Origin: Bacillota bacterium
GTDB taxonomy: Bacteria; Bacillota; JAAYKD01
Reading direction: 5' to 3'
Assembly (NCBI GenBank): GCA_036744005.1
Contig: DAINOJ010000013.1
Span: forward strand, 10 to 64,009
DNA: 64,000 nucleotides
The notes beneath the pieces were generated by a model. That model searched no databases, was not told the origin of the DNA, and was given only the letters and a program-made list of their open reading frames with translations. A program made the position numbers and the translations under genes. This document shows positions 14,442-36,604 of the stretch, piece after piece; positions within the stretch are counted from its first letter, which is position 1, and each line of letters opens with the position of its first letter.

Positions 14442-14620
14442 CGTGTGCACAAAGCAAACGGAACAAACGGGAATAAGGCTACCAGGTGCATTTTGTATCA
14501 AACTCGTGTCCTTCTCCAAAAAAATCAGCACACCAACGCGGTGTGCTGATTTTTTTGGTGGAGGGAACCCGTAGCCAATGTTTGCATTGGCGAAGCTCTG
14601 GCAATTAAAAGCGTTTGCGA
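14442..14620. repeat. structured repeat element, copy 1
   Basis: 14442-14573 aligns ungapped to 33596-33727 with 8 mismatches in 132 nt; 19-bp perfect hairpin 14516-14558; 7-bp hairpin plus GAAGC at 14574-14596. Confidence 0.9.
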
Positions 14621-14727
14621 AGCACAATGCGGAATTGCTGGAGTCCACCATCACAGTATTATACGAACTTCTTCTATTTCAAAGGAGGCTTTGCCTTCAC
14701 AATCATGCTGGAAAACTGCATAAAAGA

Positions 14728-14765
14728 AGCAACTCGGGAGTGACTCCGAGTTGCTCTCTTTTTTT
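14728..14765 (+). terminator. intrinsic terminator-like hairpin
   Basis: AGCAACTCGG...CCGAGTTGCT followed by CTCTTTTTTT. Confidence 0.55.
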
Positions 14766-15348
14766 GGCAGAAAAAAAGTCAACACATTCTCGCTGGGCGC
14801 AATGCGTCCAATTCGCAAAGTGCCATACGAGAAGTTGACTTCTTAGAACACCAGCGCTATCCCGTCAGTACCGCAAGGGTAAAGCTCAAAGCGAAGAATT
14901 TCGCCCGGTTAGGATGCCCACTGATGCTCATGATAATTATATCAGAGGAACTGAGAAAAGTCAAAAAGTTGCTCTCTATTTTTGACTTCGTTGCTGCTTT
15001 GTTTATTGCATCAACCAAGAGATTCGGAAGCTCTTCCGATGTACTGTTTAATTCGGCAGAAATTTCTCTAATTGTATGAAATAGAAAGGAAATTGCGGTA
15101 GACTGGGGGAATAGTGTATTTAAACAAAAACTAATGAATTTGAGTTTTCATGAATACGAACCATATGGAGTGGAAGCGGGTTTTCTAACCATTCAAAACT
15201 TCCTAAATTTGTCGTATCGCAAAACAATAACTCTCCATTGCGGTTCTCCAATTTACGAGATTTTAGCAATGGATTTTTTTTGCCCGGATTAGCATTCTGA
15301 GATAAGAAATCCATACTCACATCATGATCAGCAGAAGAGGTGATATAT

Positions 15349-15954
15349 ATGAACAAACAAATGCCATACAATGGCACCCTAACAGCGGAACAATTTTTGT
15401 ATTACGAAATGAGAATTGTATCCAAGCTGCATCTTGAGGGAAAGAATATGGAAGAGATTATTGAATGCATCCAGCGTGATAACCTGTTCCAGTTTCCTAC
15501 CGAGCGAATGATTTATAGAATTGCTAGTGCATGTTACAAACGCATCATTGCATTGGATAACCCGAAGCTTGTCTACGAAGTAGCAAATGCTCCGGTCGAT
15601 GTCGCTAAACAGATCAACCTTTACTCGATGATGTGTTACAACCGTCTAGTCCGTGAATTTATGGAAGGGCTGATTGGAGAAAAGTATCGGCAACAAGATT
15701 ACTCTTATACTAGGAAGGACATCAACATATTTTTCACCCGTTTACAGGAGCAGCACGACGATGTAGCAGCTTGGAGCGATAAGACGATTGGGAAATTAAA
15801 GCAAGTATTAACCAAATGCCTCATTGAAACGGAGATGCTCAATAGTGTGAAGGATACCACGCTCAACCCTATTTTTATAAGTTCTGAACTGGAAACTGGC
15901 ATCCGTGAAAACAACGACTTGACCGCTCTCGCTGCGTTCAATTGCTTTAGGTAG
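15349..15954 (+). CDS. brxA: BREX protein BrxA (DUF1819)
   Basis: YNGTLTAEQFLYYEMR, DNLFQFPTE, WSDKTIGKLKQ; first gene of the BREX operon; RBS AAGAGGTG. Confidence 0.9.
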   Translation: MNKQMPYNGTLTAEQFLYYEMRIVSKLHLEGKNMEEIIECIQRDNLFQFPTERMIYRIASACYKRIIALDNPKLVYEVANAPVDVAKQINLYSMMCYNRLVREFMEGLIGEKYRQQDYSYTRKDINIFFTRLQEQHDDVAAWSDKTIGKLKQVLTKCLIETEMLNSVKDTTLNPIFISSELETGIRENNDLTALAAFNCFR

Positions 15955-15964
15955 GAGTGTGAAT

Positions 15965-16522
15965 ATGACTGATATCAAACAAGAACTAGACAAAATTAAA
16001 GCTCGTATCTCCGATGCGAATTTTCTCGCGAACAAAGGTCTATCTAATGAAGTGGGAATTCATGTTTTCACCTACGAACCACAACACGAGCTTATCGTTC
16101 GGGATTATATTGAGCGTCTCGTTAACACCCCGTCCAAGGATTACAGGATTATTGAGAGAGACATGTATAAAATCTTACTAGAAATACTGGATGAGAAACG
16201 TGTTCTTGTTAGCGTGCCATCTTTAGAAGAAAAGAAGGGTAAAGACTTTCTTCTTGCTCAGCTTCAGAAGATTGCAACACAAGATGCTTTTCTTACTAAG
16301 ATGAAATACGAACCACGTCAATACGGAGACGTATTGTTCCTAACAGGTGTCGGTAAAGTATACCCATTTATGAGATCTCATAAAATCCTTGATAGTATGC
16401 AGTTAGAATTCGACAAAGTGCCCATTGTCATGTTTTACCCTGGAGTATTCGATGGTAAGAGCTTAAGCTTATTCGATAAATTCCATGATGGGAACTATTA
16501 TAGAGCGTTTAATCTACTTTAG
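15965..16522 (+). CDS. brxB: BREX protein BrxB (DUF1788)
   Basis: GLSNEVGIHVFTYEP, LTGVGKVYPFMRSH, PIVMFYPG, NYYRAF. Confidence 0.92.
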   Translation: MTDIKQELDKIKARISDANFLANKGLSNEVGIHVFTYEPQHELIVRDYIERLVNTPSKDYRIIERDMYKILLEILDEKRVLVSVPSLEEKKGKDFLLAQLQKIATQDAFLTKMKYEPRQYGDVLFLTGVGKVYPFMRSHKILDSMQLEFDKVPIVMFYPGVFDGKSLSLFDKFHDGNYYRAFNLL

Positions 16523-16533
16523 GAGGCAAGCAA

Positions 16534-19500
16534 ATGAAAATCCAGAATATGTTCAAAAAGGATATCAACCGCGACATCAATGGTGTGATCAAGGTCGCAC
16601 AGGATGATGAACAGAGTCTTATTCAGGAACTCAGCGAGTATATCATCACCAAAGAACTCCGACGCCTCTTTGAAACTTTTTTTCATAACTACACGAAAGC
16701 GATTGATCACCCAACTGACAAAATAGGTGTTTGGATCTCAGGTTTCTTTGGAAGTGGTAAATCCCATTTCTTGAAAATGCTTTCCTACCTTCTCTCAAAC
16801 CCTGAAGTTGACAAGAAAAGCACCATTAGTTTCTTTAAAGATAAATTCGAAGACCCTATGATGTATGCTTCGATTGTCCGTTGTACGAATATCCCCACAG
16901 AATCAATCCTCTTTAACATCGATATTGAAGGGCCAATAAAGAAAGATAAGACCGCTGTCTTGCGTGTGTTTACCAAGGTGTTTTATAACCATCTTGGATT
17001 CTATGGCGAAGACTTAAAAATCGCCAAACTGGAGCGCTTCATCGAGAAGAAAGGGTTGACCGAGACTTTCCGCAAAGTGTTTGAACAAATAAATGGTTCG
17101 CCTTGGACGGAAGCCAGAGCTTCCTATGCGTTTTTCGAAGATGACATTGTTACGGTTCTGCAAAGAACACTTGATATGAGCGAAACGGCTGCCCGTAACT
17201 GGTTCAACGGAGAAGAGAACCAAGATATGAGCATTAAGCAACTCGTAGAGGAAATTAAAGAATACGTCGATTCAAAGGGTAAGGATTTTAGACTCCTATT
17301 TTGTGTGGACGAAGTCGGTCAATACATTGGGGACGATAGTGACTTAATGATCAATCTTCAATCCATTGTCGAAGAAGTGGGTAGCAAATGCCAGGGAAAA
17401 GTCTGGGTTATGGTGACCAGCCAGGAAGCCATCGACTCGGTAGTGAAAATCAGTGGCGATGATTTCTCAAAGATTCAAGGGCGTTTTAACACTCGCTTAT
17501 CCTTGTCCTCCGCTTCGGTGGATGAGGTGATTAAGAAGCGTATACTCGAAAAAACAGAGGACGCAGAGGCTCTTCTTCGTATGGTTTACGATAGAGAACA
17601 TGCCGTTTTAAAGAATCTCTTTACCTTCAATGAATCCGTATTAGATATCAAGGGTTATGCCGACAGCGCTGAGTTCACATCAACCTATCCTTTTGTTCCA
17701 TACCAATTCATCATCATTCAAAAAGTCCTTGCGGAGATCCGCAAACACGGCAATGCAGGTAGGCATCTCTCTGGCGGAGAGCGCTCCATGCTTTCAGGAT
17801 TCCAGGAAGCAGCACAAAAAATTCAGAACAAAGATGAGAATGCACTTGTATCTTTCTCGCAATTCTATGATACCGTACATACCTTTCTTGAAAGTCCGAT
17901 TCGCCGAGTCATTGACCGTTGTCAAACAGCGGCCGATAAACATGACGGCTTAGAACAGCGGGATGTGCGCGTTCTAAAATTGCTTTACCTTATTCGCTAC
18001 ATCGACGACTTTAAGGCGAACATTGATAATATCTCTACTTTAATGATAGAAGATATCCGCACAGATAAGATTACTTTACGTCGTGAAATCGCCGAAAGCT
18101 TGGAACGCTTAGTACGCCAAAACTATGTTGCGCGACATGGCGATAGCTACTCCTTCTTAACGGATGAGGAGCAAGATGTAGCAACCGACATTCGCAACAC
18201 ACCTGTTGATACAGCAACCATTGTACAGAGTATTGGTCAGACCATCTTTAACGAGATCTATTCCTCAAAGAAGTTTAAATATAACAAATATGACTTCTCC
18301 TATGACCAGTATATCGATGAATACATGATCGGAACTGCATCGGGTGGAGTACGCTTGCGTTTGGTAACCGTGGTCAGCGATTATTATAATGCTCCTGAAG
18401 CTAAGCTTATTATGGATTCAAAGATTAACAACGAAGCGATTGTAGTATTATCGGGTGAGACTCATTATTTTGAAGAACTTGAGACTGCTGCCAAAATACG
18501 CAAATACATTAAGCAGAAGAACGTGTCTCAGCTACCTGAAAGCATTCAGGATATCATCCGCAAACGCCAAGCACAGGCACGCGTGTTAGAAGAAAGCGCG
18601 AGAACACAGATAGACAAAGCGATTGTTGGTAGTAGCTTCTTTATTCATGGGGAGAAAGCCGAAATCAAATATGGAGATGCCAAGAGTAAATTGGATGAAG
18701 CACTAAAGCAACTCATCGATAGTGTCTACTCAAAGTTGAGCCAGGTTAACACCTTCAGCGATAGTGATGCCGATATTTTAACGATACTCAACAGCTCCCC
18801 TCAGCAAATCGGTTTTTCTGGCACTGGTTCCAATAATGAATATGCCTTAAACGAGATTAGCCAATGGCTCGAAGATCGTTATTTAAGTCATGTACCTGTT
18901 TCCATGGGTGATGTTCATCGTAGATACCAAGCAATACCCCATGGTTGGCGTGAAATCGATATCGCAGCGCTCGTAGCAAGACTCATCGTTGCACAAAGAA
19001 TTGAAATCCGTTACGGGGGTGCTGCAGTTAGTAAAGAGGATAAAAACATTGTCCGATACCTCCGGGCAAAATCAGAGATTGACAAAGCAAGCGTCAGTCG
19101 AAGAATCTCGCCCTCAGAAGACGACATGCGTAAAGTTGTTAAGTTCCTCCGTGATTGGCTTGGGAAGATGAATATACCCGAGGATGAAGATGGACTCTTA
19201 TACTATATTAAAGAGACTTTTAATACCAAGCTTGCTCACTATGAGAATCTACTGGTTGAATACAATCATTTCAATTACCCAGAGAAAGACGTAGTGCTTA
19301 AAGCACAAGCCCTTATTGTGGAAATATTTTCTCAGAGATCGGATAATGTTGCTCTATTGAAGAAGCTTCTTGTAAAACAAGATGATTTGCGTGATATCAC
19401 TGATGACATGGAAGACATTGAAACCTTCTTTCGATCTCAGAGAGACATTTTTGATTCTGCACAAAAATTATACGCCAGTCTGCAGAACGAATTGGATTAT

Positions 19501-20052
19501 TTTGCTTCGATCCAAAGCACGAATGAGAAAATTAGAGAAGTTGCTGCTATCATTGCCATGAAAAAGCCCTATAATAGAATAAAGGACTTATCTGAATTGA
19601 TGCAGAGCATAAAAGTTGCATATGAGTCCTTGCTCAAGCAAAAGAAAGACGAAGTTCTGGGCATCATACAGCAATGTATGGGGGACATCCACACACTGGC
19701 AGGAGCCGGTAACAAGGTAAAAAATGAAGTAAATCAGTCAGATGAGCGATTCGTTGATTACAAACAAAGAACGAACAAAGCTACTAGTCTCACCATGTTG
19801 GATGCAATGGTCACGCAAATGCTCAACTATAAGGACCATATATGTAGAAGAATGGAAGCAATGATAAGTGTAGAAGCCCCTGTTAAACCTGGAGAGACGT
19901 TACAGAAGCTTAGGATTTCGCAAGTACGCCGCTATGAAATTTTCCCAACCAAACGACTGACCACACAAGCAGAGGTCGACACCTACCTTGAATCGATACG
20001 GAAAAAGCTAATCGAGATTTTACAAGCGAATGACGGAATCCAAATAACCTAG
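16534..20052 (+). CDS. brxC: BREX P-loop ATPase BrxC
   Basis: WISGFFGSGKSH Walker A, VDEVGQY Walker B, KIQGRF, YPFVPYQ. Confidence 0.95.
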   Translation: MKIQNMFKKDINRDINGVIKVAQDDEQSLIQELSEYIITKELRRLFETFFHNYTKAIDHPTDKIGVWISGFFGSGKSHFLKMLSYLLSNPEVDKKSTISFFKDKFEDPMMYASIVRCTNIPTESILFNIDIEGPIKKDKTAVLRVFTKVFYNHLGFYGEDLKIAKLERFIEKKGLTETFRKVFEQINGSPWTEARASYAFFEDDIVTVLQRTLDMSETAARNWFNGEENQDMSIKQLVEEIKEYVDSKGKDFRLLFCVDEVGQYIGDDSDLMINLQSIVEEVGSKCQGKVWVMVTSQEAIDSVVKISGDDFSKIQGRFNTRLSLSSASVDEVIKKRILEKTEDAEALLRMVYDREHAVLKNLFTFNESVLDIKGYADSAEFTSTYPFVPYQFIIIQKVLAEIRKHGNAGRHLSGGERSMLSGFQEAAQKIQNKDENALVSFSQFYDTVHTFLESPIRRVIDRCQTAADKHDGLEQRDVRVLKLLYLIRYIDDFKANIDNISTLMIEDIRTDKITLRREIAESLERLVRQNYVARHGDSYSFLTDEEQDVATDIRNTPVDTATIVQSIGQTIFNEIYSSKKFKYNKYDFSYDQYIDEYMIGTASGGVRLRLVTVVSDYYNAPEAKLIMDSKINNEAIVVLSGETHYFEELETAAKIRKYIKQKNVSQLPESIQDIIRKRQAQARVLEESARTQIDKAIVGSSFFIHGEKAEIKYGDAKSKLDEALKQLIDSVYSKLSQVNTFSDSDADILTILNSSPQQIGFSGTGSNNEYALNEISQWLEDRYLSHVPVSMGDVHRRYQAIPHGWREIDIAALVARLIVAQRIEIRYGGAAVSKEDKNIVRYLRAKSEIDKASVSRRISPSEDDMRKVVKFLRDWLGKMNIPEDEDGLLYYIKETFNTKLAHYENLLVEYNHFNYPEKDVVLKAQALIVEIFSQRSDNVALLKKLLVKQDDLRDITDDMEDIETFFRSQRDIFDSAQKLYASLQNELDYFASIQSTNEKIREVAAIIAMKKPYNRIKDLSELMQSIKVAYESLLKQKKDEVLGIIQQCMGDIHTLAGAGNKVKNEVNQSDERFVDYKQRTNKATSLTMLDAMVTQMLNYKDHICRRMEAMISVEAPVKPGETLQKLRISQVRRYEIFPTKRLTTQAEVDTYLESIRKKLIEILQANDGIQIT

Positions 20053-20064
20053 AGGAAGTGAACC

Positions 20065-23000
20065 ATGAATAAGAGTGCAATTCAAAAATATGCGATTTGG
20101 GCACGCAACGAACTGATTGACCAAGTGAAGCAGCGTGCTTACCAATATGGAATCAGTGAAAAAGGATACGGCAACGAGCGTGAAGTCGTTATCTCTGGTC
20201 GTGTATTGACAGAGGAAGAACAGCGACAACGTCAAGCTTTTGTTGTACAAATCCAAAAGCAAGGTTACCAGCAAGCTGTTGAAGAAGTAGCTTATACTTG
20301 GTTTAACCGTTTTGTTGCCTTGCGTTTTATGGAAGTGAACGATTATCTACCAACCCATGTCCGTGTGTTTTCGGATGCGAGTGGAAATTTCAATCCTGAA
20401 ATTCTGAAAGATGCTCTGCATCTTGACTTACAGGGTTTAGACAAAGCAAAAGTATCTGACCTGTTGAACGCCAATAAAACAGAAGAGCTCTATCGATATC
20501 TTCTTCTGACTCAGTGTAACACTCTTAACGAGGCGTTACCGGAAATGTTTGAACGGTTAGGTAACTATACTGAGATGCTTCTGCCAAACAATATACTTAA
20601 GGCAGATAGTGTTTTAGGGAGGCTTGTCTCCGATATCACAGAAGATGATTTTCGAGATGCGGTCCAGATAATAGGCTGGATGTATCAGTACTACAATACA
20701 GAACCTAAGCAAGCAGTGTTCGATGGTTTGAAGAAAAATATTAAAATCACCAAAGAGAAAATCCCTGCTGCCACGCAACTCTTTACACCGGACTGGATTG
20801 TTCGATACATGGTGGAGAACTCTCTCGGTAGGTTGTGGTTGGAGTCACATCCGAATGATAAACTTAGAGCTACTTGGAAATACTACCTTGATGAAGCTGA
20901 ACAAACGCCTGAAGTAGCAGAAAAACTGCGTGTCTTGCGTTCGCAGTCTCCTGTGAAGTCACCGGAAGATATAAAGCTAATAGACCCCTGCATGGGCAGT
21001 GGTCATATCTTGGTGTATACCTTTGATGTACTGATGCAAATCTACGAGAGCGAAGGATACAATCCTCGTGATGCTGCAAAGTTGATTTTAAAGAAAAACA
21101 TCTATGGTTTGGACATTGATCGTAGGGCTTACCAGCTCGCGTATTTCTCGCTGATGATGAAAGCACGACAGTATAATCGCCGCATGTTTGCTGAGGATGT
21201 GAAACCGCAGGTTTATTATCCAGCAGGTTGGAGTGAAGGTGAGGAGTATGGTTCGCTTGTAAAAGTTGATACGCTCGAACCCGAACCACAAAGAAAGAAT
21301 ATTCGAGAACAACTTGGTTTCAATGATAATTTCGATCAAGATTTACACGTGTGGAACTTTAAACATCTTTTAACGCAGAGATATGACGTGGTCGTTACCA
21401 ATCCGCCATATATGGGGGGGAATGGAATGAGCCAAAATCTGTCCGAGTTTGTGAAGACTCACTATCCTATCAGCAAGAGTGACCTATTCTCAGCGTTCAT
21501 TGAAAAGTGCATAGATATTACAAATCAAACTGGTTATTGTGGCATGGTTACGATGCAAGCGTGGATGTTTCTATCAAGTTATGAAGTCTTTAGAAAACGA
21601 TTGTTGGCAAAACACACGATTTTTTCACTTGTTCAGATTGGATACAACAGTTTTCCTGAAATCAATTCAAAAGTTGCACTAGCGGTTTCATTAATTTTGA
21701 ATAAAGCACATATCAAGAATTATTATGGTTGCTATCTTGATTTAACAAATAAATATCCACAAGCTTTTAATAAAGAACGAGCCTTTTTTTTGGAAAAGTT
21801 AACTCCTTTTGTCGTTGTTGCAGATAGGTTTATGAAGATACCTAATAGCCCCTTGGCATATTGGGTAAGTGAAGATATGCTGAAAGTATTCGAAAAGGGA
21901 ATCCCGTTAGGGAGTATTGCTGATTCCAAACAGGGATTAGCTACAACAGACAACAAGAAATATTTGCGGTTGTGGCACGAGGTTTCCGAAAACAGGATTG
22001 GTTTTGGTTTATCAAATGTTATTGAAGCGTCAAAAAGCAGGTCAAAATGGTTCCCTTATAATAAGGGAGGTGACTTTAGAAAATGGTATGGTAATGATGA
22101 GTATGTAGTGAACTACTCATGCGATGGAGCAGATATAAAAGCTGATGTTCTAAAAAAATACCCATACTTAAAAACTCCTGATTTTGTTGTTAAAAATACT
22201 CAGTATTATTTCAGAAGATGCATAAGTTGGTCCCTTGTATCCTCGGGAGCAGCATCGTTTCGCTATAAACCGCAAGGATTCATATTTGATGTAGCCGGTA
22301 TGAGTTTTTTTGCTAATGACCATATACTGTATCTGCTAGCTCTTAGTAACACGAAAATAACACTTAAATTCTTAAGTATACTTGCGGCAACAATTAATTA
22401 TCAATGTGGTGATATAGCAAATATTCCGGTTATTATAAATAACTCAAGAAAGCCAAGAATTGAAGATCTAGTTAACATTAACATCAATATTTGCAGAGAC
22501 GAGTGGGATTCCTTCGAAACCTCATGGGATTTTAGACGGCATCCTTTAGTAATTACAGGGAATTTTTTCAAAGGTGGTAAACTAGAACCGAATAAACCTA
22601 TCCCTACAGTACCTCTAAATGTTATGTCATATGGAACCGTGACAGATAAAATATCCATTGCTTTTAATCACTGGGAGGCTTTTGCGGAGTATAGATTCAG
22701 CACCCTCAAAGCCAACGAGGAAGAGCTCAATCGTATCTTCATCGACATCTACAGACTGCAAGACGAACTCACAACTGAGGTTGAGGACAAGGATGTGACT
22801 GTGCGCCGTGCTGACTTGGGGCGAGACATTCGTAGTTTCATCAGTTATTCAGTCGGTTGTATGTTTGGACGCTATTCACTCGATGAAGAAGGGTTGACCT
22901 ATGCAGGTGGAGATTGGGACTCGAGCAAATATAACACATTCATCCCCGACAAGGATAATGTTTTACCCATATGTGATGATGAGTATTTCGATGATGATAT

Positions 23001-23523
23001 TGTTGGACGATTTGTTGAGTTCACACGCGTAGTTTACGGTGCAGAAACCTTAGAGGAAAACTTGAAGTTCATCGCTGATGCACTCGGTGGTAAGGGTACA
23101 TCTCGTGAAGTGATTCGCAACTACTTCCTAAATGGCTTCTATGCTGATCATTGTAAGATTTATCAGAAACGCCCAATCTACTGGTTGTTTGACAGCGGTA
23201 AGAAGAACGGTTTTAAAGCGCTCATCTATCTACATCGGTATTCTTCAGATCTTCTTGCTAAGTTACGGGTCGATTACGTTCACGAACAACAGGAACGATA
23301 TCGAACGCAGCTATCACATATTGATTCTGCTTTAAACGCAGCTACGGGCTCGGAACGAGCTCGGCTGTTAAAACAACAAGATGAATTGTCGGAGCAGCTT
23401 AAGGAAATCACTGCTTTTGAAGAGAAGATTCATCACCTAGCAGATCAAAACATTGAGATAGACCTTGACGATGGTGTTAAAGTAAATTACGCTAAATTTC
23501 CAGATGTTTTGGCGAAAATATAA
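20065..23523 (+). CDS. pglX: BREX-1 adenine methyltransferase PglX
   Basis: AYTWFNR, TQLFTPDWIVRYMVENSLG, DPCMGSGH, TNPPY, KRPIYW, DDGVKVNY. Confidence 0.96.
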   Translation: MNKSAIQKYAIWARNELIDQVKQRAYQYGISEKGYGNEREVVISGRVLTEEEQRQRQAFVVQIQKQGYQQAVEEVAYTWFNRFVALRFMEVNDYLPTHVRVFSDASGNFNPEILKDALHLDLQGLDKAKVSDLLNANKTEELYRYLLLTQCNTLNEALPEMFERLGNYTEMLLPNNILKADSVLGRLVSDITEDDFRDAVQIIGWMYQYYNTEPKQAVFDGLKKNIKITKEKIPAATQLFTPDWIVRYMVENSLGRLWLESHPNDKLRATWKYYLDEAEQTPEVAEKLRVLRSQSPVKSPEDIKLIDPCMGSGHILVYTFDVLMQIYESEGYNPRDAAKLILKKNIYGLDIDRRAYQLAYFSLMMKARQYNRRMFAEDVKPQVYYPAGWSEGEEYGSLVKVDTLEPEPQRKNIREQLGFNDNFDQDLHVWNFKHLLTQRYDVVVTNPPYMGGNGMSQNLSEFVKTHYPISKSDLFSAFIEKCIDITNQTGYCGMVTMQAWMFLSSYEVFRKRLLAKHTIFSLVQIGYNSFPEINSKVALAVSLILNKAHIKNYYGCYLDLTNKYPQAFNKERAFFLEKLTPFVVVADRFMKIPNSPLAYWVSEDMLKVFEKGIPLGSIADSKQGLATTDNKKYLRLWHEVSENRIGFGLSNVIEASKSRSKWFPYNKGGDFRKWYGNDEYVVNYSCDGADIKADVLKKYPYLKTPDFVVKNTQYYFRRCISWSLVSSGAASFRYKPQGFIFDVAGMSFFANDHILYLLALSNTKITLKFLSILAATINYQCGDIANIPVIINNSRKPRIEDLVNININICRDEWDSFETSWDFRRHPLVITGNFFKGGKLEPNKPIPTVPLNVMSYGTVTDKISIAFNHWEAFAEYRFSTLKANEEELNRIFIDIYRLQDELTTEVEDKDVTVRRADLGRDIRSFISYSVGCMFGRYSLDEEGLTYAGGDWDSSKYNTFIPDKDNVLPICDDEYFDDDIVGRFVEFTRVVYGAETLEENLKFIADALGGKGTSREVIRNYFLNGFYADHCKIYQKRPIYWLFDSGKKNGFKALIYLHRYSSDLLAKLRVDYVHEQQERYRTQLSHIDSALNAATGSERARLLKQQDELSEQLKEITAFEEKIHHLADQNIEIDLDDGVKVNYAKFPDVLAKI

Positions 23524-23531
23524 GGAGGAAC

Positions 23532-26129: not shown

Positions 26130-26147
26130 GGAAAGGAGGGTTCTGCT

Positions 26148-28223
26148 ATGTCCTCAGAAATAACGCAATACACAACGGAAACAGATGATAAGAATGCAAT
26201 CATCAATAAGAAACTGCGTAAGTATTTTGATGGAAGAATTGTCCGCAAAGATCTGACGAAGGCAATTAAAGAAGGGGCCAATGTGCCTGTCTATGTTTTG
26301 GAGTTTTTACTGGGTCAGTATTGCTCTACCGATGACCCGCAAATCGTTGAGGAAGGCATGAAAAACGTTAAGAGAATCCTCTCAGAAAACTTTGTACGAC
26401 CGGATGAGTCGCAAAAAGTATTATCGAGCTTGCGTGAACGAGGTAGTTATACGGTCATTGATCGCATAACAGTAAGTTTGAACATTAAATATGACCGTTA
26501 TGAAGCGGATTTTTCGAACCTAGGAATTCGATATATTCCGATCTCCTCGGAGTATGTTTCAAAGTATGACCGTCTGCTATGCGGGGGTATTTGGTGCATT
26601 ATTGGGCTTGAATACGAGTATATTGAAGAAGACAGAAAGTCTACGCCAATCAGTATTGTCAGACTGACCCCCATTCAAATGCCTCATATCGATATGGATG
26701 AAATCAAAGCGGGTCGCCGTGAGTTTACCAAGGATGAGTGGATAACGGTTCTGCTACGTTCTACCGGAATGGAAGCGGATCGTTTCACAACTCGAGAAAA
26801 GTGGTTGCAACTGGCTCGATTACTGCCGCTTATTGAGAACAATTTCAATTTTTGCGAGTTGGGCCCACGCAGCACAGGAAAATCACACTTATACAAAGAG
26901 ATTTCACCAAACAGTATTTTGGTTTCCGGAGGGCAAACCACGGTTGCGAACCTCTTCTATAACATGTCAACAAAGCAAGTTGGGTTAGTTGGGCTTTGGG
27001 ATTGTGTAGCTTTTGATGAAGTTGCAGGCATCACCTTCAAAGATAAAGATGGCATTCAAATCATGAAGGATTACATGGCTTCTGGATCCTTTGCCAGAGG
27101 AAAGGAAGAGAAGGCTGCTTCGGCTTCAATGGTATTTGTGGGGAATATCAATCAAAGTGTAGAGGTTCTCTTAAAAACATCGCATCTCTTTGATCCATTC
27201 CCTGAAGCAATAGCCTACGATACGGCCTTTCTAGACCGAATGCATTGTTATATACCCGGTTGGGAGGTCCCAAAATATCGCCCTGAATCCTTCACCAATG
27301 ATTATGGCTTTATAACGGACTACCTTGCTGAATTCATGCGCGAGATGCGTAAAGAGCCGTTTGGTGATGTGAGTGACCGTTTCTTCCGCTTTGGAAACAA
27401 TCTGAATCAGCGAGATGTGATTGCTGTACGCAAAATTGTGTCCGCTTTTACGAAGCTGCTTTATCCTCATGGAGAATTTAGCAAAGAAGAGATCGCCGAG
27501 ATTTTAGTCTTTGCATTGGAGATGCGTCGACGCGTCAAAGAGCAAATGAAGAAAATCGGCGGAATGGAATTTTACGATGTGAATTTTTCTTATATCGACA
27601 ATGAAACCTTTGAGCAGCACTACATTTCGGTTCCTGAGCAGGGTGGGGGTAAGATCATACCTGAAGGGCTAAGCAATCCAGGTAATGTGTATACAGTATC
27701 ACAAGGCAAGAGCGGCATGATTGGAGTTTATCGACTTGAAACACAAATGCTACCCGGAAACGGAAAATTTGAGCGTACTGGCCTAGGGTCCGACCGTGAA
27801 GCTAGGGAAGCGACCAACTCAGCGTTTAACTACTTGAAAGCAAGCAGTCATTTAATAAGCGGCCAACTCAGCACAACAACCAAAGACTATATCATCAGTT
27901 ACCAAGATCTGAACGGAATTGGAATGACCAAACTATTGACACTGCCTTCGGTTATTGCCATTGCCTCTTGTGCTCTCAACAAACCGACGCTTTCCGGTCT
28001 TGCTGTGCTGGGCGAAATCAGTATTAGTGGCACAATTCTAAAGGTTGAGGAACTTGCTAGCGTTTTGCAAGTGTGTCTCAACGCCGGAGCAAAAAAGGTG
28101 CTCATACCCATAACATCTGCTGCGGAAATCGGGGCAGTTCCTGCAGAATTGATAGGTGCTTTCAGCTTGATTTTTTATGCTACCCCACAAGAAGCTGTGT
28201 TCAAAGCGTTGGGTGTGGAGTAG
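26148..28223 (+). CDS. brxL: BREX Lon-like protein BrxL
   Basis: GANVPVYVLEFLLG, ELGPRSTGKS, FDEV, C-terminal Lon-like domain. Confidence 0.95.
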   Translation: MSSEITQYTTETDDKNAIINKKLRKYFDGRIVRKDLTKAIKEGANVPVYVLEFLLGQYCSTDDPQIVEEGMKNVKRILSENFVRPDESQKVLSSLRERGSYTVIDRITVSLNIKYDRYEADFSNLGIRYIPISSEYVSKYDRLLCGGIWCIIGLEYEYIEEDRKSTPISIVRLTPIQMPHIDMDEIKAGRREFTKDEWITVLLRSTGMEADRFTTREKWLQLARLLPLIENNFNFCELGPRSTGKSHLYKEISPNSILVSGGQTTVANLFYNMSTKQVGLVGLWDCVAFDEVAGITFKDKDGIQIMKDYMASGSFARGKEEKAASASMVFVGNINQSVEVLLKTSHLFDPFPEAIAYDTAFLDRMHCYIPGWEVPKYRPESFTNDYGFITDYLAEFMREMRKEPFGDVSDRFFRFGNNLNQRDVIAVRKIVSAFTKLLYPHGEFSKEEIAEILVFALEMRRRVKEQMKKIGGMEFYDVNFSYIDNETFEQHYISVPEQGGGKIIPEGLSNPGNVYTVSQGKSGMIGVYRLETQMLPGNGKFERTGLGSDREAREATNSAFNYLKASSHLISGQLSTTTKDYIISYQDLNGIGMTKLLTLPSVIAIASCALNKPTLSGLAVLGEISISGTILKVEELASVLQVCLNAGAKKVLIPITSAAEIGAVPAELIGAFSLIFYATPQEAVFKALGVE

Positions 28224-28469: not shown

Positions 28470-30464
28470 ATGAGTAGTATTCAGAACAATAATAATACGA
28501 TTTCATTGCTTGACGACGACTGCTCTTTCGTCAGCTCTTCAGGAGGCAAGCTCGAGGTCGTTAAACTCACTTATGAGTCAGCCGAGTCCATTACTTGGCA
28601 AGACCTCTTTTCTGGTTTCGACACACTTTATGCGATCACTTTCTCGTCCGGCGTCAATTTCGTGTATAAGCTTCTCGGAATGTTTGACTACGCCGAAATC
28701 ATTTTCGGCTGTGAAGCTGTTATGTCCTATACACTTCAAGAAGTTATGGCGTATCAGGGCATACTCATTAAACGAATGCGAGACGGTATATCGGAATCTC
28801 AATCTCAGCTGCTTTCACGTATGGATAACGGCAGCGTTAAATTCTATGTATCCCGGACAAAACTCTCTCATGAAAAGCTGTACCTCCTCGCAGCTGAAGA
28901 CGGGCGCAAGCGTGTTATAATGGGCTCTGCCAACATGTCTTATAATGCTTTTGGCGGAATACAGCGTGAAAATATCTGCTATATGGACGGGGATGAAGCG
29001 TATGACTGGTACATGGGTTCATTCTCAGAACTCCGGGAATGCAGTTCAGACACGATAAAGCGAAGTGCCCTCGAACGAGCTGATCTGAATGAAAACATTG
29101 ATGAACTGCCAGTGGCCGGATCGATAAAGGCTAATAAAGTCCTTGTCATAGAGCCGGTTAAGGAGAACACAGAGGAAGTCAAATTCGTACTAGAAACTCA
29201 TAGGCGTGCAGGTACACTTACCCCAATGCTACCAAAGGCAGATAAAAAAACTGGTAAGCTTACCGTGGTGACGGATACCATCGTGAAGCTGCGTCGGCAA
29301 CTTATAAGCGAAGCGACAAAAGAAAAAGAACTGCGAAGTGAGTATCCGCAGCTCGTGATTGATGCATTCCAAGGCACTGCAGCCTTGAATGCAGATCTGC
29401 TTGACCTCAACCCTGACCGGGATGCCGTCGGGCAGGATGTTTCGCTCTTTCTTAGATACATGGAAGGGTATAACAAGTTTCACGGCGATTACGTTGGTAT
29501 GCAGTATCGCTATTTTGAATTTGCCAACTGGTTTTTCTGTTCTCCTTTTATGGGTGTCATGCGGGATATGGCGGCTCGCTATGATCAGAACCGGCTGCCG
29601 TATCCTGTATTCGGTCTCGTTTACGGTCAGAGCAAGGCCGGTAAAACGAGCTTTCTGGAAACTCTGCTGAAAATGATGATTGGTCAGAAGCCAAAGGTAT
29701 CGGCACCAGACTTTACCAGATCCAGCATTGAGAATCTCAAACGCACTGTTCAGGGTGCCCCGATCATTGTTGATGATCTTACAAATACCCGTTTCAGCCA
29801 ACATGCTATTGAAACAATAAAGAACGACGACTTCGGCGTAAGTGAACATCTTATCAATTATTCGGCTGTTGTTATCAGTGCCAATGAGGATGTGAAAGCT
29901 GTTGCTCCAGAAGTGATTCGGCGTACGGTGATTTGCCGTGTGGAAGCAGGCCTCACAAATACCGAGGTAATGAAAAGTAATGTGGTGCGCTCAGTACAGC
30001 AGAAAATCGGTACTGCCTTCTACAGAGAGTATTTGCGTCGCATGCTTGCTCTGATCCCGGATTTGATTGAGGCATTGAAAGCAGACAACGATGATAATGC
30101 CCCTGACATTCTCAAGTGTTCTTCCGAAGTCATTTGCGAGATTATTGGCGAGCACACAGAGGAGATGCCTGAATATGTTCGACGTCTCTCTCTCGATAAT
30201 TATTTCAGTGAGCAAGTAACTGGAAAATACGCTATTAAGACGGTTCAGAACGCCTGGAAAACCAGTCGAAAATCATTCGTAATCTCGCCAAGGAATAATG
30301 AGTTGAGGTATAATGCCGGCGCTACATATGAAGCTGATCGTTTGATGAAGGAACTCCCTGAGACTCTGGAAGCACATAAATCCCGAGAATGGGTTGTGAT
30401 GAATTTAGACGAAGCACGACACTTCTTCGAGATCAACTTCAAAAAGCCACTGTTCCCTTGGTAA
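28470..30464 (+). CDS. PLD-family nuclease domain fused to a P-loop NTPase
   Basis: SHEKLY...VIMGSANMS (PLD HxK...GSxN), GQSKAGKT Walker A, IIVDD Walker B. Confidence 0.8.
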   Translation: MSSIQNNNNTISLLDDDCSFVSSSGGKLEVVKLTYESAESITWQDLFSGFDTLYAITFSSGVNFVYKLLGMFDYAEIIFGCEAVMSYTLQEVMAYQGILIKRMRDGISESQSQLLSRMDNGSVKFYVSRTKLSHEKLYLLAAEDGRKRVIMGSANMSYNAFGGIQRENICYMDGDEAYDWYMGSFSELRECSSDTIKRSALERADLNENIDELPVAGSIKANKVLVIEPVKENTEEVKFVLETHRRAGTLTPMLPKADKKTGKLTVVTDTIVKLRRQLISEATKEKELRSEYPQLVIDAFQGTAALNADLLDLNPDRDAVGQDVSLFLRYMEGYNKFHGDYVGMQYRYFEFANWFFCSPFMGVMRDMAARYDQNRLPYPVFGLVYGQSKAGKTSFLETLLKMMIGQKPKVSAPDFTRSSIENLKRTVQGAPIIVDDLTNTRFSQHAIETIKNDDFGVSEHLINYSAVVISANEDVKAVAPEVIRRTVICRVEAGLTNTEVMKSNVVRSVQQKIGTAFYREYLRRMLALIPDLIEALKADNDDNAPDILKCSSEVICEIIGEHTEEMPEYVRRLSLDNYFSEQVTGKYAIKTVQNAWKTSRKSFVISPRNNELRYNAGATYEADRLMKELPETLEAHKSREWVVMNLDEARHFFEINFKKPLFPW

Positions 30465-30541
30465 AGGAATCAAATTGCTAATCAGGAACACTCGGAGGGT
30501 TACTTACATATAGTGACAGAGCTTTTTTAGTTAGAGCCTGT

Positions 30542-30862: not shown

Positions 30863-30917
30863 GGAATAATTAGAGGTTTATGTGGTCTGGTAAGAAGTGC
30901 TGAAGAAGGGAGGATAG

Positions 30918-31439: not shown

Positions 31440-31485
31440 AAGAACAGTCATCAAAGGATGTGAATCAGCTTTAAGTTGAATAAGG

Positions 31486-31530
31486 AAAAGGCAACAAAGT
31501 TGCTAGCCACAGCTTGGTTGCCTTTTTGTT
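31486..31530. terminator. terminator-like inverted repeat
   Basis: AAAAGGCAAC...GTTGCCTTTT. Confidence 0.5.
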
Positions 31531-31630
31531 GTATTCATTGACATTATTATTGTTAATATAACGGATATGTGGTATAATAGATACGTAAATTATTATCTTT
31601 GAGTTAATAAAACATCATTTAGTTGCCTCT

Positions 31631-31985
31631 TGTAAGTGGTAATATAAAGTATACCATTTAGGGACATATGAAATGGGCCAAATCTCGCCACAAAGTATAC
31701 CTGTGCTCGCCAGAAAAGGGACCACCTTTAGCCTGTAATGTGTTAAGCTTTCTGAGAGAAGAAAACTCAGAAAGGAACTTAACAGATGAAGGAGTTCAAG
31801 ATGTATAGAAAATTAAAGACCTATTGCTCAAGGGTTTTTCCGAAAGAAAAACTTCAGAGATGTTAGGTATAAATCGGAAAACCGTGAACAGGTATCATAA
31901 CATGACCCTGGATGAAGACGTGGACAAAACAGCACGACCTCTTATTCGTATCATTAAAACCTTCTTAAATACAGTATTATTTTAG
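31631..31985 (+). mobile_element. istA: IS21-family remnant (left end plus frameshifted istA N-terminus)
   Basis: Begins TGTAAGTGGTAATATAAAGTATACCA with a repeated AAAGTATACC; ATG 31801 then, after a 1-nt deletion, IKDLLLKGFSERKTSEMLGINRKTVNRYHNMTLDE (IstA-type HTH); truncated. Confidence 0.65.
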
Positions 31986-33032
31986 AAACGTTATGTTGGT
32001 CCACATTGGTCCAAAGCCCATTCGTTTCATAACTGCGTCAATAGGTATAGTATGCAATTGTTTCTGTAACTTGCCAAACGCAGCCTTCATCAATTTTATA
32101 AACTCATTTAGTTCACTTTTACTCAATAGCAGAGCAAATATGATGGCAATTGCATATGCATCATTGGTTCCGTATGTGTAAGATCCATCTCTAGCTCTAA
32201 TGATTTCTAAGCTGTCAAAGCCTTTAATGCTTTTTGTGTGGAGGCGACGGCGAAATGTAATATCAAAGAAGCGTTCATCATGAGCACATTTGTTTCGTGC
32301 TAAACCTAACATTTCCATAATTTTATGAAGTTCGTCCGGAGCAACATTGAATTGTTTGGCAATCACTGATTTGTCTGCAGGCTTCATATTCAAATAGAAA
32401 TATGTGATTTTCCCAAAAGTAAGAACATTTACAAGGACCCAGAGTGGTATGTAACCATGACGAGTCATGTAGTGCGTAACAGCTTGATGATGATTACCCA
32501 TCTGCCGCGCAATTTCCTGTTGAATATCACCGATTAACTTTATAACGGATTGTGTGTTTCCTTCAGCACTAATTTGCTGGACCTTTACCAAATCAGCAGG
32601 AAGTTCAAGATTGTTCCGTTTGGCTACATAGGATAAATGATTGCTATCCGTCGCTGCTTGGCATTGGAAATTATCTAGCTTCAAATAATTGTCATATCCG
32701 TACTTAGATGAGAATTCGTGCGCAACGACAGTTTTTAATCTGTTTTCAACTATTAATAGAAATTTAAGGTAAATATTTCTGATTTCTCGATCAAAGGAAA
32801 ATAGAGAATAAACTTCATCAAAAGTCGTGCCTGTCCTATATGTTTCATCGACTGTTTCGGTAGCTTGGGTTGCCAAAAACAAATCTCTATACCCGTTAAT
32901 AACATTGTAGTAGTTTTCACCTTCCAAAATTCGCATAACGCGCGAACCTTGAGAGCCTTTTTCGATAATCATCCCTCTGCTACGAAGAGTGGCTAGTAAT
33001 TGGCGATATGTTTTGAATACTTTTTTCCCCAT
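31977..33032 (-). CDS. Abi family (Abi_2/AbiD-AbiF-like) HEPN protein
   Basis: FKTYRQLLATLRSRGMII, ENYYNVINGY, FDREIR, PLWVLVNVLTFG, RNKCAH (RxxxxH); RBS GGAGG before ATG 33032. Confidence 0.92.
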   Translation of the reverse strand: MGKKVFKTYRQLLATLRSRGMIIEKGSQGSRVMRILEGENYYNVINGYRDLFLATQATETVDETYRTGTTFDEVYSLFSFDREIRNIYLKFLLIVENRLKTVVAHEFSSKYGYDNYLKLDNFQCQAATDSNHLSYVAKRNNLELPADLVKVQQISAEGNTQSVIKLIGDIQQEIARQMGNHHQAVTHYMTRHGYIPLWVLVNVLTFGKITYFYLNMKPADKSVIAKQFNVAPDELHKIMEMLGLARNKCAHDERFFDITFRRRLHTKSIKGFDSLEIIRARDGSYTYGTNDAYAIAIIFALLLSKSELNEFIKLMKAAFGKLQKQLHTIPIDAVMKRMGFGPMWTNITFLK

Positions 33033-33044
33033 AATGCCTCCTAT

Positions 33045-33104
33045 ACTATAAAAAAGCCCCCGGGCCCGAAGGACACCGGAGGACAAACTAGCAATATTCT
33101 TTGT
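33045..33104 (-). ncRNA. candidate abiF-like leader/antitoxin RNA
   Basis: GC-rich hairpin GTCCTCCGGTGTCCTTCGGGCCCGGGGGC followed by a U-run, between a consensus promoter and the Abi RBS. Confidence 0.55.
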
Positions 33105-33110
33105 AACCCT

Positions 33111-33138
33111 ATTATAGCACACCCGTGAGTTTTGTCAA
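33111..33138 (-). promoter_or_regulatory. sigma70/sigmaA promoter of the Abi locus
   Basis: TTGACA-16 nt-TATAAT with extended -10 TG. Confidence 0.85.
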
Positions 33139-33277
33139 CACACTTTTTTTGGAAATAGGTTTGAATAGAGCTGCTATCCTCTGCAATAATTGTACATTTT
33201 ATACATGCATTAAAATTAATTATATACCGAGAAAACCTGTTTGGCAAGAGGAATTATTTCAATAAGTAGGTGATTCA

Positions 33278-33554
33278 ATGCCATACAAACCTAAGCGTCC
33301 GTGCGCTTCTGAATCGAACAAGAGATCCGGTCGTGCTTGGAAACGGAATCGTGATCGATACTTTAAAACGCATCCACAGCCAGACCAATCGGCTCCGGAT
33401 GGAGATCTTCCAGATCGTTAAAGAAAACTCTGTCGGGGAGTGTAGTGGAACTAATCCACAAGATGACATCATGGAGCGTTTGCTCACAGCAATTGCTCAG
33501 CGAAATGGTAAAATCGTGTCGCGGTTCAAGAGTGGGAAGAAAAATAACGTATAG
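33278..33554 (+). pseudogene. fused remnants of a phage HNH endonuclease and a P27-type terminase small subunit
   Basis: MPYKPKRPCA|SESNKRSGRAWKRNRDRYFKTHP (HNH N-terminus, internally deleted) joined in another frame to QTNRLRMEIFQIVKENSVGECSGTNPQDDIMERLLTA (TerS C-terminus). Confidence 0.75.
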
Positions 33555-33595
33555 ATTTTTTAAAAGACCTCTGATTCTGTCAATGCGTAAGTAAC

Positions 33596-33775
33596 CGTGT
33601 GCACAAAGCAAACGGAACAAACGGGAGCAAGGCTACCGGGTGCATTTTGTATTAAACTCATGTCCTTTTCCAATAAAATCAGCACACCAACGCGGTGTGC
33701 TGATTTTATTGGTGGAGGGAACCCGTAAGCATTCCGCAGGAATGCGAAGCAAGCGCACTTGTTAGCGTTTTCGAA
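33596..33775. repeat. structured repeat element, copy 2
   Basis: Direct repeat of 14442-14573; 19-bp hairpin 33670-33712 with a compensatory pair; GCATTCC-gca-GGAATGC plus GAAGC. Confidence 0.9.
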
Positions 33776-33923
33776 GAAAACGAGGGAAGTGCCCGGGTTA
33801 ACCAGCTTGACAAGACCTGTCTAGCACGACAAACGCACAAATTGTGCATGGTGACCGCAGCCGTTGTTCGCTGCCTCCACGCAAATTGGAATACTCAGTA
33901 AGTCGCAGATTTGAACGACGCGT

Positions 33924-36601: not shown

Positions 36602-36604
36602 AGG

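Follow-up and report, generated by a model that had tools for sequence, protein, structure and literature searches.

Introduction

Genomic islands that insert repeatedly at the 3' end of one conserved gene are known from several bacterial groups. SCCmec and composite SCC islands sit at rlmH (orfX), where their movement is driven by CcrAB. In Dehalococcoides, islands known as ssrA-GIs lie in tandem downstream of the single tmRNA gene, and a pair of CcrB-like serine recombinases has been implicated in their integration (McMurdie et al. 2011, PMC3146451). Some ssrA-GIs carry no integration module and have been read as cis-mobilisable or as fixed, a process called accretion (PMC3146451). For islands at tRNA and tmRNA genes, the Islander article describes a target-like fragment as the mark of the far end, and tandem arrays as common (PMC4383910).

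Here, we analysed a 64-kb stretch of DNA from a Bacillota bacterium (the window), in which a first-pass annotation, made from the sequence alone, had described a pair of direct repeats around a defence block and had offered three readings of them: att-like junctions, a structured noncoding RNA (ncRNA) or a REP/MITE-like element.

Results

Direct repeats flank a phage defence block

A repeat search of the window recovered the direct repeats as they had been described, at 14442-14573 and 33596-33727, with a length of 132 nt, 8 mismatches (94% identity) and a spacing of 19,154 bp. The window has no other family of direct repeats that reaches 40 nt, and the pair's sub-motifs of 17 and 19 nt occur twice each in the 64 kb, where 0.04 and 0.01 occurrences are expected by chance. 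The left flanks of the two copies are unrelated sequences; past the 132 nt, a fainter similarity between the copies continues for about 80 nt more. The 19-bp stem reads CCAAAAAAATCAGCACACC / GGTGTGCTGATTTTTTTGG in copy 1 and CCAATAAAATCAGCACACC / GGTGTGCTGATTTTATTGG in copy 2, and the A:T to T:A swap between them is indeed present, with perfect pairing in both copies. The alignment also contains the adjoining 7-bp stems (GCCAATG/CATTGGC versus GCATTCC/GGAATGC), each followed by GAAGC, and the minus-strand reading GGGTTCCCTCCACCA was found as it had been given. The sole inverted repeat in the element is an internal terminator hairpin.

The repeats do bracket a defence block. Between the two copies, we found a type 1 BREX system (brxA, brxB, brxC, pglX, pglZ and brxL; 15340..28223, + strand; Pfam and PADLOC, with brxB left out of the PADLOC run) and, beside it, a PLD/NgoFVII-like protein of 664 aa (28470..30464, + strand), with weak Pfam matches to PLDc_2 and RE_NgoFVII and no PADLOC or NCBIfam match. 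These are followed by an AbiD/Abi_2 abortive-infection gene (31977..33032, - strand; Pfam Abi_2 7e-42, PADLOC AbiD 1.7e-51), which has a predicted consensus promoter at 33138-33111 with 12/12 consensus positions matched, and by a segment at 33150..33595 (+ strand) with a 94-aa ORF, for which Pfam, PADLOC and NCBIfam gave no match.

Each repeat joins an island arm to an ssrA-type trailer

Each repeat is a composite, in which the left 77 nt form a core and the right 55 nt an ssrA-type terminator hairpin and trailer. Core 1 (14442..14518, + strand; core profile match E = 1.5e-25) ends in ...CTCGTGTCCTTCTCCA, with its CCA at 14516-14518, and core 2 (33596..33672, + strand; E = 5.6e-25), which BLAST matched to 31 loci, has its CCA at 33670-33672. 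The core motif was found at 31 loci in 29 assemblies, mostly of Clostridia and other Bacillota, and in one viral contig from IMG/VR besides. Core 1 is 84-97% identical to 31 loci of other genomes, the similarity ending at 14517-14524, and in all loci conservation stops after ...CTTCTCCA. Conservation extends over 80-130 nt and includes direct GGAACAAACGG repeats; the last 16 nt of the core agree with the tmRNA 3' end at 12/16 positions. The viral loci L010 and L012 were discarded as spurious core carriers, their match to the core 20-mer spanning only ~30 nt. A BLAST search of the element against plasmid and phage collections returned no match, nor did a scan of viral contigs with the tail motif.

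The nature of the core is best seen in a sub-family of seven loci (L013, L019, L022, L030, L033, L036 and L040), which are 97-100% identical upstream of the core over the available sequence, which amounts to 74 nt in L033 and extends up to 700 nt in most of the loci, and have six different flanks downstream of it, with no shared homology past the CCA. Since a constant upstream side meets six downstream flanks, the core boundary marks the end of a mobile element. Core 1 is the right arm of the upstream island, and core 2 is the right arm of the BREX/AbiD island.

To the right of core 1, T1 and its tail (14519..14573, + strand) consist of A7, a 10-bp GC-rich stem, T7 and then GGTGGAGGGAACCCGTA, the same sequence that stands 3' of the tmRNA gene in L045, a contig from a relative. 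There, the tmRNA gene (572-924; ARAGORN, and Rfam RF00023 with 151 bits) ends in ...CGCCTCCACCA and is directly followed by hairpin, tail and unit A (see below) as in window copy 1. T2 and its tail (33673..33727, + strand) repeat this ssrA-type terminator and trailer and bear the A:T to T:A swap. By sequence comparison, the trailer part of the repeats evidently originates from ssrA. The hairpin directly 3' of ssrA in L045, TCAGCACACC-AACGC-GGTGTGCTGA and then T7, has the makeup of an intrinsic terminator; our consensus terminator scan passed over it, probably as its stem is lengthened by the A7/T7 runs. Folded together, hairpin and tmRNA 3' end of L045 form a perfect 25-bp stem (-53.6 kcal/mol). 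The first-pass annotation had seen a likeness to a tRNA/tmRNA 3' end on the minus strand, a hunch that was right about the gene but mirrored: in L045, the true tmRNA 3' end, CCTCCACCA, precedes this same hairpin on the + strand, and the minus-strand CCCTCCACCA is just the arm of the hairpin with which that end pairs. In L042, ssrA is followed by a 1.7-kb island and this in turn by the core. A tRNA/tmRNA scan of the 64-kb window found nothing, ssrA being absent from it, and the contigs found end within ~1.2 kb to the left of the window, so that the linkage of the array to ssrA rests on relatives.

Covarying hairpins follow the repeats

Directly after copy 1 lies unit A (14574..14650, + strand; covariance model R1, 84.7 bits), composed of a 7-bp hairpin, GAAGC and a long two-part hairpin. 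Its end, GGAGTCCACCA, mimics the tmRNA 3' end, with a CCA at 14648-14650. Unit B (33728..33807, + strand; model R1, 90.1 bits) is a paralogue of unit A with compensated stems. Across seven related units, 5 of 17 pairs show two-sided compensation, and G.U wobble pairs, as read from the alignment, fit the + strand only. The units lie mostly outside the 132-nt repeat and, in the DNA searched, are limited to the ssrA trailer of this species group. Selection on structure, which had been proposed for the whole element, is thus probable for these diverged hairpins, on the basis of the seven units available. The A:T to T:A swap in the terminator does not prove such selection, since it could have arisen in a single templated mutation of the hairpin.

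A probable tandem array of islands in the window

A third, decayed junction, J3 (36581..36659, + strand), was recognised downstream of the two repeats. It consists of a core remnant, GTTCATATTGTATC, a hairpin, T3 (36605-36639), and a tail, GGTGGAAGCGTTACTCGTA, followed by GCCAAT; the terminator-plus-tail profile matched it by nhmmer with E = 1.3e-8 at 36605-36648, and a three-way alignment was concordant. This decayed junction indicates that the window holds a tandem island array, with at least three serial junctions that share one repeated att sequence, J1 (14442-14650), J2 (33596-33807) and J3. The junctions delimit an upstream island (radical-SAM peptide, ABC transporter, DegV), the 19-kb island with BREX, the PLD-like gene and AbiD, and a 2.8-kb island between J2 and J3. 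This small third island (33924..36510) encodes, by Pfam, an AAA_14/DUF4143 ATPase (33924-35264, - strand), which PADLOC places in the candidate defence family PDC-S01 (2.6e-102), and an APH-like kinase (35527-36510, + strand).

About 50 nt upstream of core 1, we also noted a decayed core-like remnant, J0 (14362..14391, + strand), in which 21/30 bases, compared by eye, are identical to the core 3' end; it gave a weak nhmmer match (14339-14391, E = 0.05) and is also present in L077. Besides J3 and J0, no further copies of core, terminator or A/B unit were found in the 64-kb window.

The BREX/AbiD island has a left-end module at 14651..14766 (+ strand). It comprises the 44-nt segment (T)CACAGTATTATACG...GGCTTTGCC, what remains of an A-like unit and, at 14728-14765, an intrinsic terminator that the terminator scan detected. 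A similar module precedes HTH_3 in L044 and L050.

Breakpoints between related strains fall at CCA sites

In L077 and L078, which come from two samples, the CCA of core 1 (14516-18) is joined straight to 14651, and exactly 14519-14650 is missing. In L044, a different sequence ending in ...GCCA is joined to the same 44-nt segment, which is thus found after a CCA in three contexts (the window, L077/L078 and L044). These breakpoints, exactly at CCA sites, fit site-specific recombination. A left end of the BREX island at 14519 was set aside, as L077, L078 and L044 make a junction after the CCA at 14648-50 at least as likely.

Five related contigs (L044, L049, L050, L063 and L068) lack 33150-33704, that is, the segment with the 94-aa ORF, core 2 and most of T2. 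At their junction, CACAC is directly followed by TTTTTTGGTGGAGGG, with an 8-nt TTTTTTGG microhomology, and four of them (L044, L049, L050 and L063) are 95-98% identical to the window from 33705-33729 rightward. The first-pass annotation had imagined a swappable cassette bounded by the repeats. This is borne out only in part: in L044 and L063, BREX and the PLD gene are absent, with breakpoints near 14862 and 31632, inward of the repeats and not at them. A strain with one copy and no BREX had been suggested as a check, and none with a clean empty site was found. Exact-protein look-ups (DegV, the flanking ATPase, AbiD) returned the same strain or rearranged relatives, with neither an excised circle nor a clean empty site among them. 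The segment from the radical-SAM peptide to DegV changes place: the window has it to the left of J1, L045 has it beside ssrA, and in L044 and L050 it comes to the right of APH. In L066, a scaffold gap falls at the junction. Remoter DegV homologues (67% identity) were uninformative, as they lie in unrelated chromosomal contexts.

Large serine recombinases as candidate enzymes

The "two recombinases" of the first-pass annotation are found outside the block, at 649-3517, which is 11 kb to the left of copy 1. Their genes stand side by side on the + strand at the right end of a prophage-like segment and encode large serine recombinases of 444 and 523 aa, both with Resolvase, Recombinase and Zn_ribbon_recom domains. 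In NCBIfam, the pair gave sub-threshold CcrB/XisF matches, of 65-107 bits against CcrA/CcrB cut-offs of 700-900. Endolysin and holin genes stand just left of the window, as seen in L051, and homology to L045 begins at 3568. For the repeats, this pair is no more than a candidate enzyme, since the end of its prophage-like segment, at 3567/3568, bears no likeness to the core system.

In other genomes, large serine recombinase genes lie immediately upstream of the core (L011, L031) or, as in the window, 4-11 kb upstream on the same strand (L023, L024). Just beyond the flank, L011 has a recombinase pair and L025 the end of one rec2-like gene. The acting enzyme would most likely be a large serine recombinase, alone or as one of a pair. 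No tyrosine integrase was seen among the scanned ORFs. At 80-130 nt, the core exceeds the usual length of an att site for serine recombinases, and this length and its direct repeats resemble the arm sites of tyrosine integrases. No recombinase domain was found within the BREX island (14651-33595), which must then be either mobilised in trans (non-autonomous) or fixed; the relatives with core 2 deleted are fixed. A literature search gave nothing specific on serine-recombinase elements at tmRNA genes in Clostridia.

Discussion

Taken together, the repeats are probably att-type junctions that follow one another where integrative islands have stacked up in tandem at the 3' end of ssrA, and the att-like option among those first offered is the one that holds. 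A site-specific recombinase would cross over at or beside the CCA, so that an incoming island could use either the genuine ssrA end or any of its mimics, for instance the end of a core or the GGAGTCCACCA end of unit A. Every entry would leave a junction of core and terminator-trailer, joined exactly after the CCA. Any order of integrations is putative. In a simple tandem model, the trailer behind core 1 would have one of two origins, the left end of the next island, that with BREX, or target DNA that became trapped. Speaking against this reading are the presence and absence of BREX in relatives, which bypass the repeats, the BREX island being devoid of a recombinase, the assignment of the window's recombinase pair to a prophage-like segment, the absence of ssrA from the window, the length and direct repeats of the core, and the searches that yielded neither an excised circle nor a clean empty site.

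Could the repeats act simply as portable homology, the 19-kb block being gained, lost or reordered by RecA-dependent (Campbell-type) recombination between copies of at least 132 nt, with no site-specific recombinase? An identity of 94% over 132 nt suffices for homologous recombination, island order varies among strains, and same-strain assemblies break at the repeat. We nevertheless regard this as unlikely, given that the observed breakpoints fall at CCA sites of 3-4 nt (L077, L078) or at the 8-nt microhomology rather than within long homology, and that identical islands occur elsewhere in six unrelated flanks with nothing shared past the CCA. It is less likely still that the whole unit, or a part of it, is a two-copy structured ncRNA gene in which selection on RNA structure explains the compensatory changes. 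On the + strand, both copies fold far better than shuffled sequence (z about -6), and the A/B units, with their five two-sided compensated pairs in seven units and their strand-specific wobbles, would suit such a gene. The core, however, has no covarying pair on either strand (32 sequences), by which we ruled it out as a structured RNA, and its consensus fold is weak (-5.7 and -3.8 kcal/mol for the two strands). Rfam 15 gave no match in the window at the gathering threshold and only chance-level ones at E up to 10 around both copies. The strong hairpin, including the 19-bp stem, belongs to the ssrA terminator, and the A/B units lie mostly beyond the repeat and only in the ssrA trailer of the species group. 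A dispersed REP-, BIME- or MITE-like intergenic element, placed around the block by coincidence, is very improbable: the element is hairpin-rich and intergenic, and several core matches in other genomes sit at contig ends, as is often the case for multi-copy DNA, but the 29 assemblies carry one or two copies each, always at an island end, the window has no more copies besides J3 and J0, terminal inverted repeats and target-site duplications are absent, and each copy marks the end of a horizontally shared segment. The lack of core covariation, the absence of an Rfam match and the count of one or two copies per genome thus argue against both the ncRNA and the REP/MITE options of the first-pass annotation.

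A bolder extension, which we put forward as speculation with a rather small chance of being right, is that terminator, tail and A/B module form a structured RNA, functional as the 3' trailer of the tmRNA gene, which each incoming island has to bring or rebuild, that the GGAGTCCACCA end of unit A serves as a second, decoy attachment site, and that the locus works as an integron-like platform on which defence cassettes are added, reordered and fixed via CCA mimics.

If islands do accumulate at ssrA in this way, serial site-specific piling at the tmRNA gene would account for the arrival of a complete BREX system and its neighbours. The ~80-nt core, which ends in its mimic of the tmRNA end, may serve as a marker by which to find where such islands end on the right in uncultured Bacillota, Clostridia among them. 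More generally, repeats that appear to be selected for structure can be a conserved arm, putatively protein-binding, fused to a gene's own terminator. The covarying A/B hairpins in the ssrA trailer and the apparent use of CCA-ending mimics as secondary attachment sites are points of experimental interest.

Comparison with known systems

The locus recalls integron attC arrays, since cargo is arrayed serially, each unit ends in a hairpin-bearing recombination site, and structure is kept while sequence varies. It differs from them in having no IntI gene among the scanned window ORFs and no attI, in its multi-gene islands of 3-19 kb, and in a core that is conserved in sequence and not in structure. 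As in SCC elements, large serine recombinases are encoded as a pair, and islands would have inserted one after another behind a single essential gene, at its 3' end. Further features in common are arrays parted by direct repeats and pseudo-elements devoid of a recombinase, whose cargo is often restriction or defence genes. The target gene and the att sequences are different, and the window recombinases, which score far below the CcrA/CcrB cut-offs, are only candidates for action on the repeats.

As for the tRNA/tmRNA-gene islands of the Islander article (PMC4383910), a tmRNA gene would be the hotspot and a target-like fragment lies at the far end. In contrast to islands of this type that use tyrosine integrases, the far-end fragment here is an island-borne mimic, conserved whatever the host, and not an exact displaced piece of the gene.

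The closest known case appears to be that of the Dehalococcoides ssrA islands, in which boundaries likewise combine a repeated target-derived sequence with a conserved adjoining island motif (PMC3146451). In Dehalococcoides, 20 bp from the 3' end of ssrA make up the repeat, crossover takes place in the T-loop, and the conserved arm measures 15 bp (PMC3146451). Here, the boundary falls after the terminal CCA, so that the tmRNA gene stays whole; the target contributes to the repeat its terminator and trailer, which lie downstream of the gene, and the island arm, conserved over 80-130 nt, has only the 12/16 mimic of the tmRNA end. Hosts and cargo differ as well, with Clostridia and other Bacillota carrying phage defence here and dehalogenases being carried in Dehalococcoides (PMC3146451). 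In conclusion, our comparison suggests that the island pile-up at this locus is of a known kind, and neither a new RNA gene nor a scattered repeat.

The direct repeats as probable att-like junctions beside ssrA

A repeat search of the 64-kb window returned a sole direct-repeat family of at least 40 nt, with copies at 14442-14573 and 33596-33727 (132 nt each, 94% identical, 19,154 bp apart). Sub-motifs of the repeat occur exactly twice each in the window, against a chance expectation of about 0.01-0.04, and when the copies are aligned a weaker likeness continues for about 80 nt past the 132 nt, with none on the left. Between them lie a complete type 1 BREX operon (brxA, brxB, brxC, pglX, pglZ, and brxL) and, alongside it, a PLD-like gene and an AbiD/Abi_2 gene. 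Reading both copies confirmed what the first-pass annotation had described, namely 8 mismatches, a 19-bp stem with an A:T to T:A swap, and next to it 7-bp stems that differ in sequence and are each followed by GAAGC. The swap in the terminator stem is a single case and is indistinguishable from the product of a templated hairpin mutation. The suggestion that the repeats are att-like junctions held up: an island-end core (the left 77 nt, 14442-14518 and 33596-33672) is joined at CCA to the trailer of ssrA, the tmRNA gene.

Scanning metagenomes for the tail motif TTGGTGGAGGGAACCCGTA turned up seven contigs. In L045 (L numbers denote loci or contigs from other genomes or metagenomes), the tmRNA gene ends in ...CGTCGCCTCCACCA (ARAGORN; Rfam RF00023, 151 bits), and directly 3' of it the sequence of window copy 1 recurs, covering the hairpin, the tail, and the first of the diverged hairpin units. 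By this comparison, the right 55 nt of the repeat is ssrA terminator plus trailer. Folding the L045 hairpin with the tmRNA 3' end gave a perfect 25-bp pairing (-53.6 kcal/mol), which explains the minus-strand CCCTCCACCA, previously likened to a tRNA/tmRNA 3' end, as the complement arm of this stem and not the 3' end of an RNA. In the window, the core end stands in place of the tmRNA end, matching it at 12 of 16 positions, and the terminator is joined exactly after CCA. The order in L042 is ssrA, a 1.7-kb island, and then a core. Other genomes carry variable terminator-like hairpins 3' of the core; given the ssrA-trailer findings, including the L042 order, these are most simply read as terminators of the target gene, or as supplied by a neighbouring element.

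The core is conserved as the end of a mobile element

A 20-mer from the repeat, scanned against one genome per species, identified 31 core loci in 29 assemblies, mostly MAGs of Clostridia or other Bacillota; one assembly is from a cultured organism, Aminicella lysinilytica DSM 28287, and an IMG/VR viral contig gave one further match. The likeness starts about 16-60 nt upstream of the 20-mer and ends at ...CTCGTGTCCTTCTCCA in every case. Within a sub-family of seven loci (L013, L019, L022, L030, L033, L036, and L040), upstream sequence is 97-100% identical across different taxa, over the stretch available at each locus (as much as 700 nt for most, 74 nt for L033), and downstream sequence differs in six ways. 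Shared upstream and differing downstream sequence, together with the many matches located at contig ends, is characteristic of the terminus of a horizontally mobile element. L013 and L030 have an identical core locus, flank included, in a Clostridiales MAG and a 'Candidatus Brocadia' MAG, which is probably due to contamination of a bin and not to transfer into a planctomycete.

Two other readings had been proposed for the repeat. As a REP- or MITE-like element it is ruled out by the genome scan, in which each assembly holds only one or two core copies. As a structured ncRNA it finds no support in the core: an alignment of 32 cores contains no compensatory pairs on either strand, the consensus fold is weak, and Rfam has no match. 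The core is thus conserved in its sequence, which is what an att arm bound by protein would show; it has direct GGAACAAACGG repeats as well as two GTGCA(C/T) motifs with a variable spacer between them.

An array of junctions, rearranged among related strains

A profile search detected a third, decayed copy of the terminator and tail at 36605-36648 (E = 1.3e-8), with a core remnant, GTTCATATTGTATC, ahead of it and a decayed tail plus GCCAAT behind it; a weak core-like remnant is also present at 14362-14391. The window therefore holds an array of junctions, not a pair, and the junctions delimit three segments. The upstream one carries radical-SAM peptide, ABC transporter, and DegV genes, and the middle one BREX, PLD-like, and AbiD genes. 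The third, a small island of 2.8 kb between junctions J2 and J3 (J3 decayed, 36581-36659), carries an APH-like kinase gene and an AAA_14/DUF4143 ATPase gene (33924-35264, minus strand; PADLOC candidate defence family PDC-S01, 2.6e-102).

In L077 and L078, which come from two samples and are about 95% identical to the window, the CCA of core 1 is joined directly to 14651, so that exactly 132 nt (14519-14650) are missing, comprising the terminator, the tail, and hairpin unit A with its terminal GGAGTCCACCA. In L044, a different sequence ending in ...GCCA is joined to the same 44-nt segment that begins at 14651. These joins place junctions at CCA sites, the end of unit A behaving as a second tmRNA-end mimic. 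Five related contigs (L044, L049, L050, L063, and L068) lack 33150-33704 (555 nt), which holds a 94-aa ORF without family match, core 2, and most of the terminator hairpin. This deletion, whose junction falls within a shared TTTTTTGG and which starts just upstream of the perfect-consensus abiD promoter (33138-33111), removes the right arm of the island and would fix the island in place. L063 has a different defence island, with GmrSD-like, methylase, ORC/Cdc6-like, and other genes, whose terminal arm is a variant (...TATCAATATATGATTTCCTTTCCA) joined to the same terminator.

L044 and L063 are without BREX and the PLD gene, and their breakpoints, near 14862 and 31632, both lie inward of the repeats; the idea that the repeats bound a BREX swap was accordingly not sustained. 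Segment order varies among strains, and the related-strain contigs yielded neither a clean empty site nor a circle junction.

Hairpin units in the ssrA trailer

The units of about 80 nt that follow each tail (A, 14574-14650; B, 33728-33807) are paralogues, present also in L044, L045, L049, L050, and L063. RNAalifold predicted 17 pairs from seven aligned units of the window and its relatives, 5 of them with two-sided compensation, and the G.U wobble pairs are compatible only with the plus strand. Copy number varies by strain (B only, or A then B, with partial units in L063); a covariance model run with filters off found no further copies in the window and none in the loci of other species. In this species group the units appear to be a genuine part of the ssrA trailer with conserved structure; they could be a processing element or else a novel small structured RNA.

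Candidate recombinases

The two recombinases invoked earlier are large serine recombinases (rec1/rec2) at 649-3517, and they lie outside the repeat-bounded block. They belong to a prophage-like segment (window 1-3567 and L051 1-1193) in which holin, endolysin, DUF2116/HTH protein, and SHOCT genes precede the pair in that order; its end at 3567/3568, where L045 homology begins, looks unrelated to the core system. In L011 and L031, the core 20-mer comes 13 nt after the end of a DUF4368-type recombinase gene. L011 also has a recombinase pair just past the core flank, beside a terminase gene and 48-55% identical to the window pair, and at the same position L025 has one rec2-like gene, of which it holds the 3' end. 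Cores in L023, L024, and the window have recombinase gene sequence 4-11 kb upstream, in the same orientation. In L023 (45-923), a core directly adjoins the interior of a serine recombinase gene that is a homologue of rec2, at CTCCAG|AAACGG, so elements of the family can insert into another element's recombinase gene at a tmRNA-end-like sequence. A second L023 core lies 5.8 kb downstream (5877-5951).

Several flanks contain TTGATACAA at a distance mirroring TTGTATCAA within the core, which makes a quasi-palindromic site centred on CCA. This site and the proximity of recombinase genes favour a serine recombinase as the candidate enzyme. Two points call for caution: a core this long, with direct repeats, would also suit a tyrosine integrase with arm sites, and the window's own pair is part of a prophage-like segment with a seemingly unrelated end.

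Other genes in the window

A low-GC (31-34%) cluster at 3704-10012 encodes a pair of radical SAM/SPASM peptide maturases along with small ORFs and an HTH_3/TPR regulator; ABC transporter and FtsX genes come next. Likely a RiPP locus, it differs in position relative to the island array in L044, L045, and L050. Directly after brxL, a 664-aa protein (28470-30464), whose N-terminal domain weakly resembles PLD/NgoFVII, is without match in PADLOC or NCBIfam and is conserved alongside BREX in relatives; it could be a BREX accessory not yet named or an independent defence gene. Downstream of it, an 80-aa ORF (30562-30804) has weak Lon_C likeness, and L049 matches the 3' end of brxL at 75% identity in the equivalent position; both observations together suggest a remnant of an earlier or different BREX and, with it, defence-gene turnover inside the island. 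A 53-aa ORF between the PLD-like gene and abiD (31824-31985), with a transposase- or terminase-like HTH (weak HTH_23 match), is probably a fragment of a mobile-element gene.

Comparison with known systems

The closest described system to the window array is that of the ssrA-specific islands of Dehalococcoides, with SCCmec composites and classical tDNA islands (PMC4383910) next. In Dehalococcoides, islands are stacked in tandem at ssrA, a target fragment recurs at every boundary, a CcrB-like serine recombinase pair is implicated, and some islands are without an integration module (PMC3146451). The window array differs in that the junction follows the terminal CCA, the repeated part is the gene's terminator and trailer and not its 3' end, the island arm, long and conserved, only mimics the tmRNA end, and the cargo is phage defence.
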